A DNA stretch of 64,000 bases from Escherichia coli (GTDB lineage: Bacteria > Pseudomonadota > Gammaproteobacteria > Enterobacterales > Enterobacteriaceae): assembly GCF_030384885.1 (NCBI RefSeq), contig NZ_CP128613.1. One strand, written 5' to 3'. The position numbers and the translations under genes were made by a program. This document shows, piece by piece, positions 37,458 to 44,787 of this stretch (position 1 is its first letter; the number at the start of each line of letters is the position of its first letter). A model generated the notes under the pieces. The model worked only from the letters and a program-made list of their open reading frames with translations. It was not told the origin of the DNA and searched no databases.

Positions 37458-38585
37458 TTGAATTACCAAATGATTACCACGGACGATGCGCTGGCTTCTT
37501 TGTGTGAAGCTGTCCGTGCCTTTCCGGCGATAGCCCTGGATACTGAATTTGTTCGTACGCGCACCTATTACCCGCAGCTGGGTCTAATTCAACTTTTCGA
37601 TGGCGAGCATCTGGCGCTAATTGATCCTCTCGGGATCACCGACTGGTCACCGCTGAAAGCGATCCTGCGCGATCCGTCCATCACAAAATTTCTCCATGCA
37701 GGCAGTGAAGATCTGGAAGTGTTCCTCAATGTCTTTGGCGAATTACCACAACCCCTGATTGACACGCAAATCCTTGCTGCCTTCTGCGGACGCCCGATGT
37801 CATGGGGTTTTGCTTCCATGGTGGAAGAGTATTCCGGCGTTACGCTGGACAAGAGTGAATCGCGCACCGACTGGCTGGCCAGACCGCTGACTGAACGTCA
37901 GTGTGAATACGCAGCGGCGGATGTCTGGTATCTGTTACCGATCACCGCAAAGCTTATGGTAGAAACGGAGGCCTCCGGCTGGCTACCTGCGGCGCTGGAT
38001 GAATGCCGCCTGATGCAAATGCGTCGTCAGGAAGTCGTTGCGCCGGAAGATGCCTGGCGTGATATCACCAATGCCTGGCAGTTACGCACACGCCAACTGG
38101 CCTGTCTGCAACTGTTAGCCGATTGGCGACTGCGTAAGGCGCGGGAGCGCGATCTGGCGGTGAACTTTGTCGTGCGTGAAGAGCATTTGTGGTCGGTAGC
38201 ACGTTATATGCCGGGAAGTCTTGGCGAACTGGATAGCCTGGGCTTATCCGGTAGCGAAATCCGCTTCCACGGTAAAACGCTGCTGGCGCTGGTGGAAAAA
38301 GCGCAGGCATTGCCGGAAGAGGCGTTACCGCAGCCGATGCTTAACCTGATGGATATGCCGGGTTATCGTAAAGCGTTTAAAGCGATTAAGTCGCTGATTA
38401 CTGACGTGAGCGAAACACACAAGATCAGCGCCGAATTGCTGGCATCGCGTCGGCAAATCAACCAGCTGCTGAACTGGCACTGGAAACTGAAACCGCAGAA
38501 CAATTTGCCGGAGCTGATTTCCGGCTGGCGTGGTGAGCTGATGGCGGAAGCATTACACAATTTATTGCAGGAATATCCACAGTAA
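37458..38585 (+). CDS. rnd: Ribonuclease D
   Basis: 375-aa product MNYQMITTDDALASLCEAVRAFPAIALDTEFVRTRTYYPQLGLIQL... (DEDD 3'-5' exonuclease plus HRDC); initiation codon is TTG at 37458, as known for rnd. Confidence 0.93.
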   Translation: MNYQMITTDDALASLCEAVRAFPAIALDTEFVRTRTYYPQLGLIQLFDGEHLALIDPLGITDWSPLKAILRDPSITKFLHAGSEDLEVFLNVFGELPQPLIDTQILAAFCGRPMSWGFASMVEEYSGVTLDKSESRTDWLARPLTERQCEYAAADVWYLLPITAKLMVETEASGWLPAALDECRLMQMRRQEVVAPEDAWRDITNAWQLRTRQLACLQLLADWRLRKARERDLAVNFVVREEHLWSVARYMPGSLGELDSLGLSGSEIRFHGKTLLALVEKAQALPEEALPQPMLNLMDMPGYRKAFKAIKSLITDVSETHKISAELLASRRQINQLLNWHWKLKPQNNLPELISGWRGELMAEALHNLLQEYPQ

Positions 38586-38598
38586 AATCTTCCGAAGC

Positions 38599-38636
38599 CG
38601 GACTGGGCGCGCTCAGCGCCACATCCGGCTTCGGCA
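38599..38636. terminator. Bidirectional hairpin between convergent rnd and yeaX
   Basis: Extended inverted repeat GAAGCCGGA...TCCGGCTTC between the two stop codons. Confidence 0.55.
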
Positions 38637-38638
38637 AA

Positions 38639-39604
38639 CTACAAATCCAACACCAGGCGTTTACCCTTCGCGCGTGAACAACAGATCAACATACTTTGCT
38701 GGCTGGCACGCTCTTCATCGCTAAAATACTGATCCCGATGGTCAGCTTCACCTTCCAGTATTGCCGTTTCGCAGGTTCCGCATACCCCTTCACGACATAA
38801 ACATTCCACTTTCGCTGCTTTACTATTTTCAATAACCTGCAAAATAGTCATCTCTTCCGCCACCACAAACTCTTTTCCGGAACGGGCAAGCACCAGCGTA
38901 AATGCATCGCCGGTTTTGTCTTCGATAGCAAATTGCTCAAAGTGCAGCGTATCGGTGGCGATGTCCAGACGCGCAGCTTCACTTCTTACCGCCTCATTTA
39001 GCGCCTCGGGGCCACAGGTATAAACATGTGTGCCAGGTTCGATATCCGCCAACAATCGCGCTAATTCCAGTCGTGTTCCGGTTGATGAATGATGCAAATG
39101 GACTTTCTCGGCCTGCGGATGCTGGACTAGCTCATCACGAAATGCGCAACTTTCTGGATTTCGCGAGCAGTAATGTAACTGCCAGTCGACGTCGCTGTAT
39201 TGCAACTCTGCCATGTGCGACAGGAAAGGGGTGATACCAATACCGCCCGCGATAAACAGATGCTTTCTGGCCGAGGGAATTAGCGCAAACAGGTTATTCG
39301 GCGTTGAAATCGTTAACCGATCGCCAGCCTTCACTTTCTGATGTAAAAAACGCGAACCGCCGCGCGAATTTTCTTCCAGTCGAACGGCAATCTGATAACG
39401 AGACGTATCGAGTGGCGAACTCAGCAGTGAGTACGCATTGCTGTACTGGTTATCACCATCGGCCATCTGCACAATGATGTGACTTCCGCCGTTGAACGCA
39501 GGCAGCGGTTTGCCATCGGTTGCCACCAGCGTGAAGCGTTTCACCTGTTCGGTAAGCGGTTCAACCTGGCTCACCTGTACTTCAAATATTTGGTAGTTTG
39601 ACAT
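38639..39604 (-). CDS. yeaX: Carnitine monooxygenase reductase subunit YeaX (CntB); FNR-like flavin reductase with 2Fe-2S ferredoxin domain
   Basis: 321-aa product MSNYQIFEVQVSQVEPLTEQVKRFTL... with C-terminal plant-type ferredoxin Cys motif (CREGVCGTCE). Confidence 0.9.
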   Translation of the reverse strand: MSNYQIFEVQVSQVEPLTEQVKRFTLVATDGKPLPAFNGGSHIIVQMADGDNQYSNAYSLLSSPLDTSRYQIAVRLEENSRGGSRFLHQKVKAGDRLTISTPNNLFALIPSARKHLFIAGGIGITPFLSHMAELQYSDVDWQLHYCSRNPESCAFRDELVQHPQAEKVHLHHSSTGTRLELARLLADIEPGTHVYTCGPEALNEAVRSEAARLDIATDTLHFEQFAIEDKTGDAFTLVLARSGKEFVVAEEMTILQVIENSKAAKVECLCREGVCGTCETAILEGEADHRDQYFSDEERASQQSMLICCSRAKGKRLVLDL

Positions 39605-39659
39605 TGCTGTACTCCATCAAAAATCAGCCCGGCGGCGGAAAATACCGCCGCCGATGTCA

Positions 39660-40784
39660 TTAGTCCTTAAACACCTGCGCCAGCAGATTATGGAAATGGG
39701 CGATACCGTGTTCGGAAATTCCGCTACCGCTACTGTCGGCCATGATGCGCCCCTGACCACGATAGCCACGCGATTTCAGCCCTTTCTGTACGCTTTCAAC
39801 CAGACGTAAATCTTCCGGACGGAACACGTCGCGATACCACTCAATCAGTGATTTTTGCTCGTCGGTTAACTCTTCATTGGTGAAGTAAATATCGTAGTTT
39901 TGCAGGGTAGTTTCAGAATCCACCGGGAATTCATAAATGACCGTCATCATGCCTTTGATCGGGGTGACGTTCAGCATCGTGCACGGCCACAGCCAGAAAC
40001 CATGGAATGCCGCATCCGTGCCCTCTTCGAATTTGAAAGACTGTTCGGACGGTTTGGCGAAACCGTACTGCAGCGTCCAGTTACCGTGCATGGTGTGCCA
40101 GTAACGATCAACCTGAACGGAGTCGGAGAAACCTGGATGCGCCGGACCACAGTGATAGCACTCGAGATAGTTATCGACAATGTTCTTCCAGTTGGCAGGC
40201 GTGCGGGTGGTAAAGCGGGCCGCCAGTTTCAGGTCATGGACTTCCGGGCAGGCTTCCAGCACTTTCTCTCCCAGACCGGGTAACTGATCTTCTACGCTGG
40301 TGGCGTTGGGGTCCATGTTGATGAAGACGAATCCGGCATATTCTTCCAGACGTACTGGAACCAGTTGCGCTTTGTCGCTATCGAAATTGGCGACGTTTTC
40401 GCAGTTACGTGCATGGGCCAGGTTGCCATCGAGTTTGAATGCCCAGGCGTGATACGGGCAGGTAATCACATTTTTCGCTTTCCCTTCGCCGCTCAATAAC
40501 TGATGACCACGGTGCGGGCAAACGTTATAGAACGCGCGCAAAACCTTATCACGACCGCGTACCAGCACGATGCTTTCGCCAATGATCTCACGCGTCACAT
40601 AATCATTGGCATTCGCCAGTTCGCTGCTGTGAGCGACGCAAATCCAGCTTTTGGCGAAGACGTTCTCTTTTTCGTGTTCAAACGCGTTCTGATCGGTATA
40701 AAAACGGGCAGGAATGGTCCACGCCTCTTGTGGGTTAGCGCAAAAATTTTCGGGTAGTACAAAGTCAGGGCTCAGATTGCTCAT
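39660..40784 (-). CDS. yeaW: Carnitine monooxygenase Rieske oxygenase subunit YeaW (CntA)
   Basis: 374-aa product MSNLSPDFVLPENFCANPQEAWTIPARFYTDQ... with Rieske motif (CPHRGH...CPYHAW); start at internal Met of ORF 39660..40904. Confidence 0.9.
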   Translation of the reverse strand: MSNLSPDFVLPENFCANPQEAWTIPARFYTDQNAFEHEKENVFAKSWICVAHSSELANANDYVTREIIGESIVLVRGRDKVLRAFYNVCPHRGHQLLSGEGKAKNVITCPYHAWAFKLDGNLAHARNCENVANFDSDKAQLVPVRLEEYAGFVFINMDPNATSVEDQLPGLGEKVLEACPEVHDLKLAARFTTRTPANWKNIVDNYLECYHCGPAHPGFSDSVQVDRYWHTMHGNWTLQYGFAKPSEQSFKFEEGTDAAFHGFWLWPCTMLNVTPIKGMMTVIYEFPVDSETTLQNYDIYFTNEELTDEQKSLIEWYRDVFRPEDLRLVESVQKGLKSRGYRGQGRIMADSSGSGISEHGIAHFHNLLAQVFKD

Positions 40785-40815
40785 AGGGATACCTTTATCG
40801 TTAGGATGATGGCGT

Positions 40816-42426
40816 TCAGTTGTCGCCTTTGAATACGGTTCCAGCAGGAAGCACTGGCGCTTTTCCCGGGGCTTCAACCGGTGTCTGCGGGAGATAATGT
40901 TCAACTTGATGAGCCGGAATGTCGGCGTAATCCTGTTTCAGCCAGCGAATAAATCCGCCGACTTTCACCAGTAAAATGGCGAGGAAGGGAAGGGCAGTGA
41001 GGACGACGGTAGTTTTCATTGTTTCCAGCGAAGCACCGGTAAACAAGATGGAAAGCGGGATCAGAGTGATCACTACGCACCAGAACAGACGCAGCCCACG
41101 GTCAGGATCGTCACCTTCCTGGAGATTACGCGTGCTGGTCGCCGCCATGGTGTAAGCCACCGCATCCATATGCGAGGCGAGGAAGATAATCATCACGCCC
41201 AGATAGGCCGCGAGGAACAATTTACCGGCTGGTAGAGACATCAGAACTTGCTGCACAGCTGTTTCGCCGCCCAGTGTTTCCAGCACCTGTGGGACGTTGA
41301 TTACGCCATTGATAAACTGATGAATGGCATAGCTTTCCATTACGCCGAAGAAGAACCAGCAACCGACGGTGCTGCCGAGGATCAGTCCCCAGATAACTTC
41401 TTTAATCTTACGACCGCGCGAAACTCGGGTGACAAACATTGCTACGCCAGGGGTGTATGAGATCCACCACAGCCAGTAGAAAACGGTCCAGTTGCGGGTA
41501 AATGAACCATCGCCAAGCGGATCGGTGAATAAGCTCATTTGCAGGAAGTTTTGCGTGGTCAGGCCGATGGCATTGATGATGCTGTTGGTAATAAATTCGG
41601 TTGGACCGACAATCAGCACCAGTAATGGCAGCAGGAATGCGCCCCAGCCAACCATTTTGCTTAGACGTTGCAAACCGTTGTTGATACCAATCCACGAGCT
41701 TAGGCAAAAAATGCCGCCGGAAAGCAGGATCACAAATGCCTGTACGGTAAAGTTATCGGGTAAACCGGTCAGCGCGGAAAGCCCACGGGTAAAGGTTGCT
41801 GCGGTGACAACAAGGGAAATGGTCAGTGCGCCGACAGTGGCGATCAGGAACATCAAATCGACCAGTTTCCCCCACGGGCCTTGCGGGCGAACGCCGGTAA
41901 TAGCAGCAATAATGCCGGAAAGGCTCAGCCCTTTATTTTTCCGCACATGAAAGTGATAAGCCATGATTAATGAGGCCAGCGTATAAGTTGCCCAGGCGCT
42001 GATGCCCCAGTGGAAGAAGGAGTAGGGAACGCTAAATTCGAGTGCCTGTTGTGAACGCGGTGCGATATTTAATCCAGGCGTTTGATAATAATAGGCCCAT
42101 TCAGCAACCCCCCAATAAAGCGTAGAAGAACCTAAACCTGCACAAATAAACATAAACAGCCAGGAGAGCGTGCTGTATTCCGGTTTTCCTTCGCCAAGAC
42201 GAATATTGCCGTATTTACTGGTGGCTAAATAAATCACCAGTCCCATTGCCAGCAAAACCAATACCTGTACGGCGGAACCTAACGTACGCGTAACAAAAGT
42301 GTATATTGCGTTGGCCGCGTCGGCCGATTGTTGTGGGAAAAGGCTTAATGCAGCTGCGATGAAAAGAATGGCCACCAGGCTGATGCTTATCAACGGCACA
42401 TCTTTTTTCTTAACATTGCTCATCAT
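40816..42426 (-). CDS. yeaV: BCCT-family transporter YeaV (CaiT-like)
   Basis: 536-aa ORF aligning from its N-terminus with CaiT-type BCCT transporters; overlaps the yeaW start by ~32 nt; exact start/end not certain. Confidence 0.85.
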
Positions 42427-42627
42427 GAGTCATCTCCTGGGCATAAAAGCCCGTCTCTGGCTTTTGCCAGTTGTAATTATTTGCAGGGTATGAGTTGTAT
42501 GTTGTGTTTAACAAATTGATTATTTACATGTTACATAAATTAAACAATTAAGAATACGGAAAGCCATAAAACACGAAACGGAAACAATAAAAGGTGAAAT
42601 GACGCAGGTTATTTACTGCAAAGAACG

Positions 42628-42657
42628 AATAAAAAAACCGCGTCAGTGACGCGGTTC
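42628..42657 (-). terminator. Intrinsic terminator after dmlA
   Basis: AACCGCGTC-AGTG-ACGCGGTT hairpin with T-run on the minus strand. Confidence 0.7.
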
Positions 42658-42675
42658 AAATAAACTGGTTTGACC

Positions 42676-43761
42676 TTAACGCAAAATAATTTTGCAAATC
42701 GCGTCGGCAACCTGTGGCGTGGTGGCATTGCCTTTCATATCAGGTGTTTTCGGCCCGTGAGCAATCACTTCTTCAATCGCGGCCAGAATACCGTTATGCG
42801 CTTGCTGGAAACGCTCATCGCCATTGCCGAGAAAATCGAGCATCATTGCACCGGCCCAAATTGTGGCGATAGGGTTAGCAATATTTTTCCCGTAGATATC
42901 CGGCGCGGAACCGTGGACTGGCTCGAAGAGCGACGGGAAAGTGCGTTCTGGATTCAGGTTGGCGGATGGGGCAATGCCGATGGTGCCGGTGCAGGCCGGG
43001 CCAAGATCGGAAAGAATATCGCCAAACAAATTAGACGCCACCACCACATCGAAGCGTTCCGGCTGCATCACAAAACGTGCGCAGAGAATATCAATATGCT
43101 GCTTGTCCCAGCGGATCTCCGGGTAATTCTCAGCCATTGCTTCCACTCGCTCATCCCAGTACGGCATGCTGATGGCTAAACCGTTCGATTTAGTGGCAGA
43201 AGTTAGCGTCTTACGTGGGCGGCTTTGCGCAAGTTCAAAGGCATAGCGCAAAATACGATCGACACCACGACGAGTAAATACCGATTCCTGAATGACGACT
43301 TCATGCTCTGTACCTTCATTCACTCTACCGCCGAGCGAGGAATATTCGCCTTCGGTGTTTTCCCTGACCACGTAAAAATCGATGTCGCCAGGCTGTTTTC
43401 CCGCCAGCGGGCAGGGAACGCCAGGAAAGAGACGAACCGGGCGCAGGTTGACGTACTGGTCGAACTCACGACGAAATTTCAGCAGCGAACCCCACAACGA
43501 AATATGGTCCGGAACGGTATCCGGCCAGCCGACGGCACCAAAATAGATGGCGTCGAAACGGCTAAGTTGCTCATGCCAGTCGTCCGGCATCATTTTACCG
43601 TGATGGCTGTAATACTCGCAGCTCGCCCACTCCATTTGCTCAAAACTCAAGGCGAAGCCCCAGCGCTCAGCGGCAGCCTGTAACACGCGAATCCCTTCAG
43701 GAAGGACTTCTTTGCCAATCCCGTCTCCCGGGATCGCAGCAATACGCATCGTTTTCATCAT
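42676..43761 (-). CDS. dmlA: D-malate/3-isopropylmalate dehydrogenase DmlA (YeaU)
   Basis: 361-aa product MMKTMRIAAIPGDGIGKEVLPEGIRVLQAAAERWGF... of the isocitrate/isopropylmalate dehydrogenase family. Confidence 0.92.
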   Translation of the reverse strand: MMKTMRIAAIPGDGIGKEVLPEGIRVLQAAAERWGFALSFEQMEWASCEYYSHHGKMMPDDWHEQLSRFDAIYFGAVGWPDTVPDHISLWGSLLKFRREFDQYVNLRPVRLFPGVPCPLAGKQPGDIDFYVVRENTEGEYSSLGGRVNEGTEHEVVIQESVFTRRGVDRILRYAFELAQSRPRKTLTSATKSNGLAISMPYWDERVEAMAENYPEIRWDKQHIDILCARFVMQPERFDVVVASNLFGDILSDLGPACTGTIGIAPSANLNPERTFPSLFEPVHGSAPDIYGKNIANPIATIWAGAMMLDFLGNGDERFQQAHNGILAAIEEVIAHGPKTPDMKGNATTPQVADAICKIILR

Positions 43762-43863
43762 TGGGTTCTCACTTCCTGACCATCAAAATTGACAATACCC
43801 TCATCCTATAATTGACTGAAAAGGAATTAATCCCCGTAACTGGTGAAACATAAAACACGAATC

Positions 43864-44787
43864 ATGAATAATTTACCGCTGCTGAACGATTTGCGCGTCT
43901 TTATGCTGGTGGCTCGCCGGGCTGGTTTTGCCTCCGTGGCAGAAGAATTGGGTGTTTCACCGGCTTTTGTCAGCAAACGCATCGCCTTGCTGGAGCAAAC
44001 GCTAAACGTGGTGTTGTTACACCGCACCACCCGCCGCGTCACCATTACCGAAGAAGGAGAGCGGATTTATGAATGGGCGCAGCGGATTTTGCAGGATGTC
44101 GGTCAAATGATGGACGAACTTTCTGACGTGCGTCAGGTGCCGCAGGGGATGCTGCGTATTATCAGCAGCTTTGGTTTTGGACGACAGGTAGTGGCTCCGG
44201 CGTTATCAGCGCTGGCGAAAGCGTATCCGCAACTGGAATTACGTTTTGATGTGGAAGACCGGTTGGTCGATTTGGTCAATGAAGGCGTCGATCTCGATAT
44301 TCGCATTGGCGATGACATCGCCCCTAATTTAATCGCCCGCAAACTGGCGACCAATTACCGCATTCTCTGCGCTTCGCCGGAATTTATTGCGCAATATGGC
44401 ACGCCGAAACATTTAACCGACCTTTCTGCATTGCCGTGCCTGGTCATTAAAGAGCGCGATCATCCTTTTGGTATCTGGCAATTACGCAATAAAGAAGGCC
44501 ACCATGCGATTAAAGTCACCGGCCCGCTGTCGTCTAATCATGGAGAAATTGTACATCAGTGGTGTCTTGATGGTCAGGGGATTGCGCTACGCTCCTGGTG
44601 GGATGTCAGCGAAAATATTGCCAGTGGTCATTTAGTGCAAGTGCTACCGGAGTATTACCAGCCAGCAAATGTCTGGGCCGTTTATGTTTCAAGGCTGGCG
44701 ACGTCAGCGAAAGTGCGGATAACGGTAGAATTTTTACGCCAGTATTTTGCCGAGCACTACCCGAATTTTTCACTGGACCACGCCTGA
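43864..44787 (+). CDS. dmlR: LysR-type transcriptional activator DmlR (YeaT)
   Basis: 307-aa product MNNLPLLNDLRVFMLVARRAGFASVAEELGVSPAFVSKRIALLE... ; divergent from dmlA. Confidence 0.9.
   Translation: MNNLPLLNDLRVFMLVARRAGFASVAEELGVSPAFVSKRIALLEQTLNVVLLHRTTRRVTITEEGERIYEWAQRILQDVGQMMDELSDVRQVPQGMLRIISSFGFGRQVVAPALSALAKAYPQLELRFDVEDRLVDLVNEGVDLDIRIGDDIAPNLIARKLATNYRILCASPEFIAQYGTPKHLTDLSALPCLVIKERDHPFGIWQLRNKEGHHAIKVTGPLSSNHGEIVHQWCLDGQGIALRSWWDVSENIASGHLVQVLPEYYQPANVWAVYVSRLATSAKVRITVEFLRQYFAEHYPNFSLDHA

Follow-up and report, generated by a model that had tools for sequence, protein, structure and literature searches.

The locus analysed here is very probably an ordinary, intact Escherichia coli yeaV-yeaW-yeaX locus, with distinct genes for a transporter, an oxygenase and a reductase that all lie on the minus strand and do not overlap; the gene set itself is already known and there is nothing new in it. 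The window (the whole 64-kb stretch of DNA that was analysed) was 100% identical to the chromosome of E. coli 2013C-4282, and the yeaVWX region was 100% identical to NZ_CP027579.1, in which PGAP annotates yeaX, yeaW (374 aa) and yeaV (536 aa) with a gap of 31 nt between yeaV and yeaW. By synteny, the three genes belong to a five-gene cluster with dmlR and dmlA (table 1). Purifying selection was found on all genes, with dN/dS values of 0.009–0.018 for yeaW, 0.024–0.033 for yeaV and about 0.1 for yeaX. The original prediction was placed at 39660–42426 and had yeaX in its title, though that gene lies outside this interval. An Rfam scan of positions 38400–44000 (E ≤ 1) returned a single sub-threshold match, to anti-hemB on the dmlA terminator hairpin, which at 21.6 bits against a threshold of 49.5 was judged to be a chance match.

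Table 1. Features of the dmlR-dmlA-yeaVWX region, in window coordinates.
Feature	Position	Strand	Basis or remark
yeaX (cntB), carnitine monooxygenase reductase, 321 aa	38639–39604	−	PGAP; Pfam Fer2, NAD_binding_1, FAD_binding_6
GC-rich hairpin (10 pairs, 9 G-C) and T-run in the 55-nt yeaW-yeaX spacer	39629–39654	−	terminator-like scan
yeaW (cntA), carnitine monooxygenase oxygenase subunit, 374 aa	39660–40784	−	PGAP; Pfam Rieske and Ring_hydroxyl_A
yeaV-yeaW spacer, 31 nt, with yeaW ribosome-binding site AAAGG at 40792–40796	40785–40815	−	sequence
False extension of the yeaW frame by 40 codons, up to TTG 40904, outside the gene	40785–40904	−	mechanical ORF
yeaV, BCCT-family transporter, full length, 536 aa	40816–42426	−	PGAP; Pfam BCCT at residues 14–499
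Segment deleted in K-12 MG1655 and BL21(DE3), 224 bp	42299–42522	−	alignments
Putative yeaV promoter: −35 TTGTTT (42542–42547), 17-nt spacer, −10 AATAAT (42519–42524)	42519–42547	−	inferred
13-mer TTCGTGTTTTATG, copy 1, upstream of yeaV	42565–42577	−	exact word shared with the dmlR-dmlA intergenic region
Intrinsic-terminator-like hairpin and T-run after dmlA, separating dmlA from yeaVWX	42635–42657	−	scan and sequence
dmlA, decarboxylating D-malate dehydrogenase	42676–43761	−	annotation
13-mer TTCGTGTTTTATG, copy 2, abutting the dmlR start codon, about 90–100 nt upstream of the dmlA ATG	43849–43861	−	
dmlR, LysR-type regulator, divergent from dmlA	43864–44787	+	annotation

Boundary between yeaV and yeaW

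The yeaV frame is closed by TGA at 40818–40816, and the ATG of yeaW at 40784 begins 31 nt further downstream, preceded at a distance of 7 nt by its ribosome-binding site. Overlapping or coupled gene pairs have the downstream start inside the upstream coding sequence or abutting it; here the two are 31 nt apart. An overlap, of 89 nt, appears only in the maximal mechanical form of the yeaW frame (414 aa), which begins at TTG 40904, and positions 40816–40904 are the 3' end of yeaV in another reading frame. Automatic longest-ORF calls thereby overstate yeaW by 40 codons and produce a false overlap.

Start codons were compared across five orthologous loci, all taken from the plasmid collection, and these settle the start of yeaW. 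The frame upstream of ATG 40784 stays open for 51 codons in the window strain, N96 and K-12, and contains TTG codons at −40 and −31. In four other genomes a stop codon interrupts it and the closed frame offers no alternative start: the stop lies at −23 codons in the divergent E. coli strain EC42405, at −13 in Klebsiella pneumoniae, at −3 in Klebsiella aerogenes and at −5 in Acinetobacter baumannii. Because about 9% of random sequences show 51 open codons upstream of a start, the open frame above yeaW is unremarkable. A ribosome-binding site was looked for before TTG 40904 and TTG 40877 and none was found. Between the window and K-12, the segment of the supposed overlap carries five substitutions, four of which cause radical amino-acid changes in the extension frame, as read from the alignment. 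The spacer length and the position of the ribosome-binding site are conserved in K-12, EC42405 and Klebsiella (AAGGAG), the BCCT-cntA spacer of Klebsiella being 36–37 nt. The native Met of A. baumannii CntA (PDB 6Y8J) aligns with the Met at 40784, the residues encoded before that Met aligning only to the His tag, and the ligand numbers published for E. coli YeaW are compatible only with a start at this ATG.

The overlap of transporter and oxygenase genes that had been claimed is, as judged from these comparisons, an artefact of extending the yeaW open frame to an unused TTG at 40904. The original prediction had itself named ORF extension, exposed by reference proteins with other termini, as what would count against the overlap, and this is what the comparisons show. 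That YeaW is in fact made from TTG 40904 or 40877, with an extension of 31–40 residues within the 3' end of yeaV and possibly with translational coupling, is scarcely credible and already effectively refuted by the comparative data: the open frame and its two TTG codons, which are shared by three E. coli strains and are no rarity by chance, stand against the stops in relatives, the absence of a ribosome-binding site at either TTG, the radical K-12 changes, the homologous start of CntA and the numbering of the active enzyme on the 374-aa form (PMC9508527).

Oxygenase, reductase and upstream region

YeaW has the ligands and the full-length similarity to a characterized member that are expected of a CntA-type oxygenase. 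The Rieske ligands are present as C-x-H-x17-C-x2-H (CPHRGH...CPYH, residues 89–112 of 374, with Cys89, His91, Cys109 and His112; Pfam Rieske, E 1e-23), which bears out the motif originally read in the ORF ending at 39660. The mononuclear iron site, including the bridging Glu, is E208-x2-H211-x4-H216 with Asp325, aligned to E205/H208/H213/D323 of CntA. Identity to the crystallised A. baumannii CntA is 74% over residues 10–370 (PDB 6Y8J, E 1e-198), and a single residue of 374 differs from K-12 YeaW. The E. coli YeaW and YeaX proteins have been characterized biochemically as a carnitine monooxygenase with carnitine-dependent formation of trimethylamine (TMA), and the active YeaW was described as a trimer with Cys89/His91/Cys109/His112, His211/His216/Asp325 and Glu208 (PMC9508527). 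By analogy with this near-identical enzyme, the YeaW of the window would produce TMA from carnitine together with its partner reductase; the earlier assignment of YeaW/YeaX to the TMA-forming carnitine monooxygenase CntA/CntB agrees with these data.

YeaX combines an FNR-like flavin/NAD module with a C-terminal plant-type [2Fe-2S] ferredoxin domain whose four cysteines (C270-x4-C275-x2-C278...C308) are the ligands published in PMC9508527, which is the composition of a CntB reductase. It is 51% identical to A. baumannii CntB and differs from K-12 YeaX at 14 of 321 residues; in the NCBIfam search it matched no dedicated model at its cut-off. The plant-type ferredoxin motif predicted for the reductase was found, and only the placing of the gene within the predicted interval was wrong. 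In the spacer before yeaX, the terminator-like hairpin lies directly in front of the ribosome-binding site GGAG and folds with −29.7 kcal/mol (z = −4.66). In the corresponding place before cntB, Klebsiella has a different hairpin with a T-run. A putative role of the E. coli hairpin would be that of an attenuator or mRNA stabiliser.

In the mechanism proposed, YeaV, a 12-helix BCCT transporter, would import L-carnitine or related quaternary amines, and electrons would pass from YeaX to trimeric YeaW (Rieske [2Fe-2S] cluster and mononuclear iron, cofactors taken from the literature). YeaW and O2 would then oxidise carnitine to a product that splits into trimethylamine and malic semialdehyde. DmlA converts D-malate to pyruvate, and the LysR regulator DmlR might control yeaVWX. 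The locus is of medical relevance as one of the routes by which gut bacteria supply trimethylamine, from which TMAO is formed.

DmlA is 72% identical to its orthologue Mdh of the Acinetobacter carnitine operon, whose role in the carnitine pathway is described in PMC11353897, and dmlA adjoins the BCCT gene also in Klebsiella, Acinetobacter and Psychrobacter. A LysR gene occupies the position of dmlR in the same three genera, and DmlR is 45% identical to its A. baumannii orthologue CarR (PMC11353897). The 13-mer TTCGTGTTTTATG matches the window twice only, once upstream of yeaV and once in the dmlR-dmlA intergenic region; a shared word of this length was reached in 5 of 3000 dinucleotide-preserving shuffles, and both Klebsiella species have kept the word ahead of their BCCT gene. 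It is a candidate binding site for DmlR. The yeaV promoter is putative and proposed solely from conservation in Klebsiella: both hexamers are kept across E. coli, K. pneumoniae and K. aerogenes, with variation in part of the spacer, and a consensus promoter scan upstream of yeaV called nothing, the −35 element fitting at only 3 of 6 positions. Hairpins in the leader ahead of the yeaV ribosome-binding site are only modestly more stable than shuffled sequences (z = −2.5 for E. coli and −2.2 for Klebsiella), and no RNA element is claimed for them.

Deletion alleles, physiological role and transporter

The segment of 224 bp that is deleted in K-12 and BL21 reaches from within the putative −10 element, across the 5' leader and the ribosome-binding site, into the coding sequence of yeaV, where it takes in codons 1–43, start codon included (TM1). 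Its end points are ambiguous by about 1 nt (junction ...CAAA|TTTTG...); a 7-bp direct repeat, TTTGTTA, considered to flank the K-12 deletion was dropped on the alignment of K-12, BL21 and the window, which gives that junction. The annotated K-12 YeaV has 481 aa and starts at a TTG that lies within helix 2, and in BL21 PGAP flags yeaV as a pseudogene with its N-terminus missing. Comparison with the reference annotation length, which had been suggested as a check, does show a difference from the 536 aa found here, and this is due to the 224-bp deletion, not to another choice of start codon. The 481-aa reference protein is thus a deletion remnant and not the natural protein. Of 5426 complete E. 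coli genomes, 1441 (27%) had the junction, K-12 and BL21 among them, and 2930 had the 224-bp segment, the intact allele making up 54% of genomes; dmlR, dmlA and yeaVWX were lost together in about 1055 (about 19%).

No growth on carnitine was seen for BL21, B and K12, and BL21 extract had no activity; the authors proposed a different physiological role (PMC11353897). Between the oxygenase and reductase genes, a 1.45-kb dehydrogenase gene is found in Klebsiella, Acinetobacter, Psychrobacter and Burkholderia, and 55 nt in E. coli. The missing aldehyde dehydrogenase gene and the negative results with carnitine both weigh against the proposed mechanism in E. coli. The module may not be catabolic at all, trimming intracellular carnitine or other compatible solutes of the quaternary amine type or, with msadh absent, being a decaying remnant. 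This reading, somewhat unlikely in our judgement, would accommodate the absence of msadh and hyd, the short yeaW-yeaX spacer, the negative growth and extract results and the share of genomes that have lost the cluster or the 5' end of yeaV. Decay is, however, difficult to reconcile with the strong purifying selection on yeaW, yeaV and dmlA. The negative strains K-12 and BL21 carry the deletion allele, so their results may not apply to intact strains, and E. coli has, elsewhere in its genome, GabD, which is 62% identical to MSA-DH (PMC11353897). Work on transport, expression and growth confined to K-12 and BL21 may in the same way under-report what E. coli with the intact allele does.

These observations can be joined in a more speculative account, to which we give a lower probability still. 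A natural deletion in K-12 and B/BL21, not a property of the species, would explain the reported lack of carnitine monooxygenase expression and of growth on carnitine in E. coli. In strains with the intact allele, DmlR would switch on yeaVWX and dmlA through the shared candidate site TTCGTGTTTTATG, and the route would lead from carnitine to TMA plus D-malate and onward to pyruvate, the step without a gene in the cluster being supplied by an unlinked aldehyde dehydrogenase.

The boundaries of YeaV had been regarded as uncertain at the N-terminus. A ribosome-binding site (AGGAG, 42434–42438) lies 7 nt before ATG 42426, the Klebsiella orthologues begin at the same Met, the ORF list gives 42426 as the most upstream start possible for yeaV, and the NCBIfam equivalog NF007412 covers positions 1–536 of 536 (1028 bits, cut-off 647); on these alignments the start at 42426 is firm in the window strain. 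Membership of the BCCT family is indicated by full-length profile matches (PF02028, 405 bits over 14–499; TIGR00842, 546 bits, cut-off 408) and by the tryptophan box WTVFYWLWW at residue 313. The C-terminal extension of about 30 residues that had been noticed is present: the alignment to CaiT ends at YeaV 502 (CaiT 504 of 504) and leaves a tail of 34 residues, a normal, variable feature of the YeaV clade.

The description of YeaV as CaiT-like is accurate as regards homology and less so as regards type. CaiT is a clear homologue (E 1e-69, residues 26–502 aligned, tryptophan box common to both), which would be compatible with a substrate:product antiporter taking carnitine in and releasing gamma-butyrobetaine or another product. 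Against this, YeaV scores 344 bits with the CaiT equivalog NF002887, below its cut-off of 541, and among solved structures DddT is closer (E 6e-100). The closest characterized relative, the A. baumannii BCCT protein of the same operon position (54% identity), has the PGAP annotation BCCT family carnitine transporter, and PMC11353897 describes Aci01347 as taking up carnitine and choline in an energy-dependent manner. TMA and malic semialdehyde would also be atypical substrates of a BCCT protein. An antiporter in place of an energy-coupled importer therefore appears improbable, and YeaV is treated here as a predicted importer. In TCDB, YeaV is listed as uncharacterised, and the only data on its substrate come from untargeted metabolomics (PMC10971958), presumably on the truncated K-12 allele.

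Comparison with known systems

The K-12 genes yeaV-yeaW-yeaX (b1801–b1803) form the same locus, with the same order, strand arrangement and 31-nt yeaV-yeaW spacer, and with catalytic residues identical to those of the published E. coli enzyme. K-12 and BL21 lack the 224 bp of yeaV leader and codons 1–43, whereas the window strain has the 536-aa gene and the conserved upstream region.

In K. pneumoniae and K. aerogenes the cluster is dmlR-dmlA-bcct-cntA-msadh-cntB, with YeaV, YeaW and DmlA 87–91% identical and using the same start codons. Conservation extends over about 200 nt ahead of the BCCT gene, a stretch that holds the 13-mer and both hexamers of the putative promoter. Unlike E. coli, Klebsiella has retained an aldehyde dehydrogenase gene in the interval from cntA to cntB. 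The A. baumannii operon (carR / mdh-bcct-hyd-cntA-msadh-cntB) has the same order of regulator, dehydrogenase, transporter, oxygenase and reductase, and the identities to it (DmlA/Mdh 72%, YeaV/BCCT 54%, YeaW/CntA 74%, YeaX/CntB 51%) agree with PMC11353897. The E. coli cluster lacks its genes for acylcarnitine hydrolase (hyd) and malic semialdehyde dehydrogenase (msadh) and, unlike it, has dmlA separated from yeaV by a terminator-like hairpin.

CaiT, the L-carnitine/gamma-butyrobetaine antiporter of E. coli (PDB 2WSX/3HFX), belongs to the same BCCT fold family as YeaV, with a near full-length alignment and the tryptophan box. It lacks the 34-residue C-terminal tail of YeaV, which itself falls under the CaiT equivalog cut-off, and the genomic contexts differ, yeaV lying with an aerobic oxygenase and caiT in the cai operon.

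Gene assignments and the start of yeaW

The 6.5 kb around the module matched the E. coli 2013C-4282 chromosome (NZ_CP027579.1) at 100% identity, and a match to at least part of this region was found in all but one (5425) of the 5426 complete E. coli genomes. Gene identities and functions agreed with the original prediction; they are already well known, and nothing new is added here for yeaVWX. Pfam domains were Rieske and ring-hydroxylating catalytic for YeaW, and 2Fe-2S ferredoxin and FNR-like flavin/NAD for YeaX. Both predicted motifs were present, the Rieske motif (CPHRGH...CPYH) in YeaW and the ferredoxin motif (C-x4-C-x2-C...C) in YeaX. Of the extent proposed for the module, 39660-42426, the part covering yeaV and yeaW was correct, and yeaX lies outside it.

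Features of the dmlR-dmlA-yeaVWX region (window coordinates)
Feature	Position	Strand	Remarks
yeaX	38639-39604	-	PGAP
yeaW	39660-40784	-	374 aa, PGAP
yeaV	40816-42426	-	536 aa, PGAP
TTCGTGTTTTATG copy, upstream of yeaV	42565-42577	-	exact 13-mer
dmlA	42676-43761	-	PGAP
TTCGTGTTTTATG copy, dmlR-dmlA spacer, adjoining dmlR start	43849-43861	-	exact 13-mer
dmlR	43864-44787	+	PGAP

The transporter and oxygenase genes had been predicted to overlap, because the mechanical ORF list extends the yeaW frame, open back to TTG 40904, to give 414 aa and an overlap of 89 nt with the end of yeaV. This overlap is an artefact, and the start of yeaW was assigned to ATG 40784 on five grounds. The native Met of the crystallised A. 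baumannii CntA (6Y8J) was aligned opposite the Met encoded at 40784, and the ten residues preceding the latter paired solely with the vector His tag. AAAGG is located 7 nt 5' of this ATG, and inspection of the upstream TTG codons of the frame revealed no comparable ribosome-binding site. The upstream frame is closed by a stop 23 codons before the homologous ATG in the divergent E. coli EC42405, and 13, 3 and 5 codons before it in K. pneumoniae, K. aerogenes and A. baumannii, respectively, with no alternative start between stop and ATG in any of these four. Counting YeaW from ATG 40784 gave exactly the ligand positions published for the active trimeric E. coli enzyme (Cys89, His91, Cys109, His112, Glu208, His211, His216 and Asp325; PMC9508527). 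The chance probability of a 51-codon open stretch was about 9%. With yeaW beginning at ATG 40784, 31 nt separate its start from the yeaV stop (TGA 40818-40816), a spacing also found in K-12 and EC42405 (36-37 nt in Klebsiella).

The yeaV start and allele states among E. coli genomes

The yeaV start, previously regarded as uncertain, was settled at ATG 42426. This is the most upstream start available to yeaV in the ORF list, AGGAG is located 7 nt 5' of it, and it aligned with the starts of the Klebsiella orthologues (first ATG kept, second codon different). The K-12 reference YeaV is annotated at 481 aa, and comparison with the 536 aa of the window copy traced the discrepancy to a common natural 224-bp deletion rather than to start-codon choice. 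In alignments, both K-12 MG1655 and BL21(DE3) lacked 224 bp (window about 42299-42522) comprising the leader and ribosome-binding site of yeaV together with its start codon and codons 1-43. The annotated K-12 start is a TTG at the codon-56 position, within the second hydrophobic helix. PGAP flags BL21 yeaV as a pseudogene with missing N-terminus; the K-12 copy is still annotated as intact. In BL21(DE3) (L010:33967-35675) the nearby yeaR is also interrupted by the IS4-like IS421, which is not so in the window strain.

Three allelic states were distinguished across the 5426 complete genomes. The yeaV/yeaW junction was found in 4371 and the 224-bp segment in 2930; the K-12 deletion junction, detected with a 52-nt spanning probe, was found in 1441, exactly the difference. 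In about 1055 genomes, for example an APEC O1:K1:H7 strain, dmlR, dmlA and yeaVWX were lost as one block, leaving only pseudogene fragments of dmlA (156 nt) and dmlR (168 nt) between rnd and leuE. The block loss spans window about 38600-44700 (compare L011:4587-5128). The deletion allele in laboratory strains is one of only two points worth following up, together with the possible link to DmlR.

The window copy was compared with K-12 and EC42405 for dN/dS, and all genes were under purifying selection (yeaW 0.009-0.018, yeaV 0.024-0.033, yeaX about 0.1). Relative to the K-12 proteins, 14 of 321 residues differed in YeaX, 1 of 374 in YeaW and none in DmlA. The YeaX reductase is evolving about 10 times faster than its oxygenase partner. 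In the bovine strain EC42405 (L004), yeaV and yeaW were unusually far from the window copy (dS about 0.31-0.33), whereas flanking dmlA was not (dS 0.03), a pattern suggestive of a recombination boundary within the cluster.

Upstream region, shared 13-mer and yeaW-yeaX spacer

Conservation between E. coli and Klebsiella is striking over the approximately 200 nt 5' of yeaV; noncoding 42427-42620 (minus strand) is nearly as conserved as coding sequence. TTGTTT and AATAAT, separated by 17 nt, were read as the -35 and -10 hexamers of a putative promoter, and the K-12 deletion starts within this AATAAT. A small GGGC-loop-GCCC hairpin with variable loop is located immediately 5' of the yeaV ribosome-binding site.

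The 13-mer TTCGTGTTTTATG had only two matches within the 64-kb window, oriented alike with respect to the gene downstream of each, and was kept at both positions in Klebsiella. A shared word of this length was reached in only 5 of 3000 dinucleotide-preserving shuffles. Judged from sequence, TTCGTGTTTTATG is a candidate binding site of the LysR regulator DmlR common to both regions. In the mechanical ORF list dmlR begins at GTG 43843, 21 nt 5' of ATG 43864, its annotated start; the added codons span TTCGTGTTTTATG, so the choice of dmlR start sets the motif as coding or leader.

The 55-nt yeaW-yeaX spacer (39605-39659) contains a very stable hairpin followed by a T-run (z = -4.7), and Klebsiella has a hairpin and T-run at the equivalent position. 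Where E. coli has this spacer, the position is occupied by a 1.45-kb aldehyde dehydrogenase gene in Klebsiella, Acinetobacter, Psychrobacter and Burkholderia. The final 22 nt 5' of yeaX match the Klebsiella msadh-cntB spacer.

Transporter type and comparison with carnitine clusters

YeaV matched Pfam BCCT over residues 14-499; its match to the NCBIfam equivalog NF007412 (1028 bits, cut-off 647) spanned the full 536 positions. The predicted C-terminal extension of about 30 aa was confirmed, YeaV running 34 residues past the CaiT end. Tails of variable length occurred in all YeaV orthologues examined, and such a tail is normal for the family. The likeness to CaiT is limited: YeaV scored 344 bits, below the 541-bit cut-off of the CaiT equivalog model, and solved DddT structures are nearer to YeaV than CaiT is. 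The A. baumannii BCCT at the same operon position, named carnitine transporter by PGAP, is 54% identical to YeaV. Acinetobacter Aci01347 has been described as an energy-dependent importer of carnitine and choline (PMC11353897). For E. coli YeaV itself, direct evidence on substrates comes solely from an untargeted metabolomics screen (PMC10971958), and we therefore only infer an import role.

The cluster order in K. pneumoniae, K. aerogenes, A. baumannii and Psychrobacter was LysR regulator, tartrate/D-malate dehydrogenase, BCCT, cntA, aldehyde dehydrogenase and cntB, with a hydrolase gene directly before cntA in Acinetobacter. In Burkholderia, cntA, the dehydrogenase gene and cntB are retained, but no BCCT gene lies next to them. 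The Acinetobacter route leads from carnitine to TMA and malic semialdehyde, and on to D-malate and pyruvate; in the same study BL21, B and K12 did not grow on carnitine and BL21 extract had no activity (PMC11353897). K-12 and BL21, negative there, carry the 224-bp deletion allele. The dmlR-dmlA-yeaVWX genes of E. coli form the same cluster, from which the genes for the hydrolase and the aldehyde dehydrogenase are absent, and their correspondence to the Acinetobacter cluster has already been described (PMC11353897).
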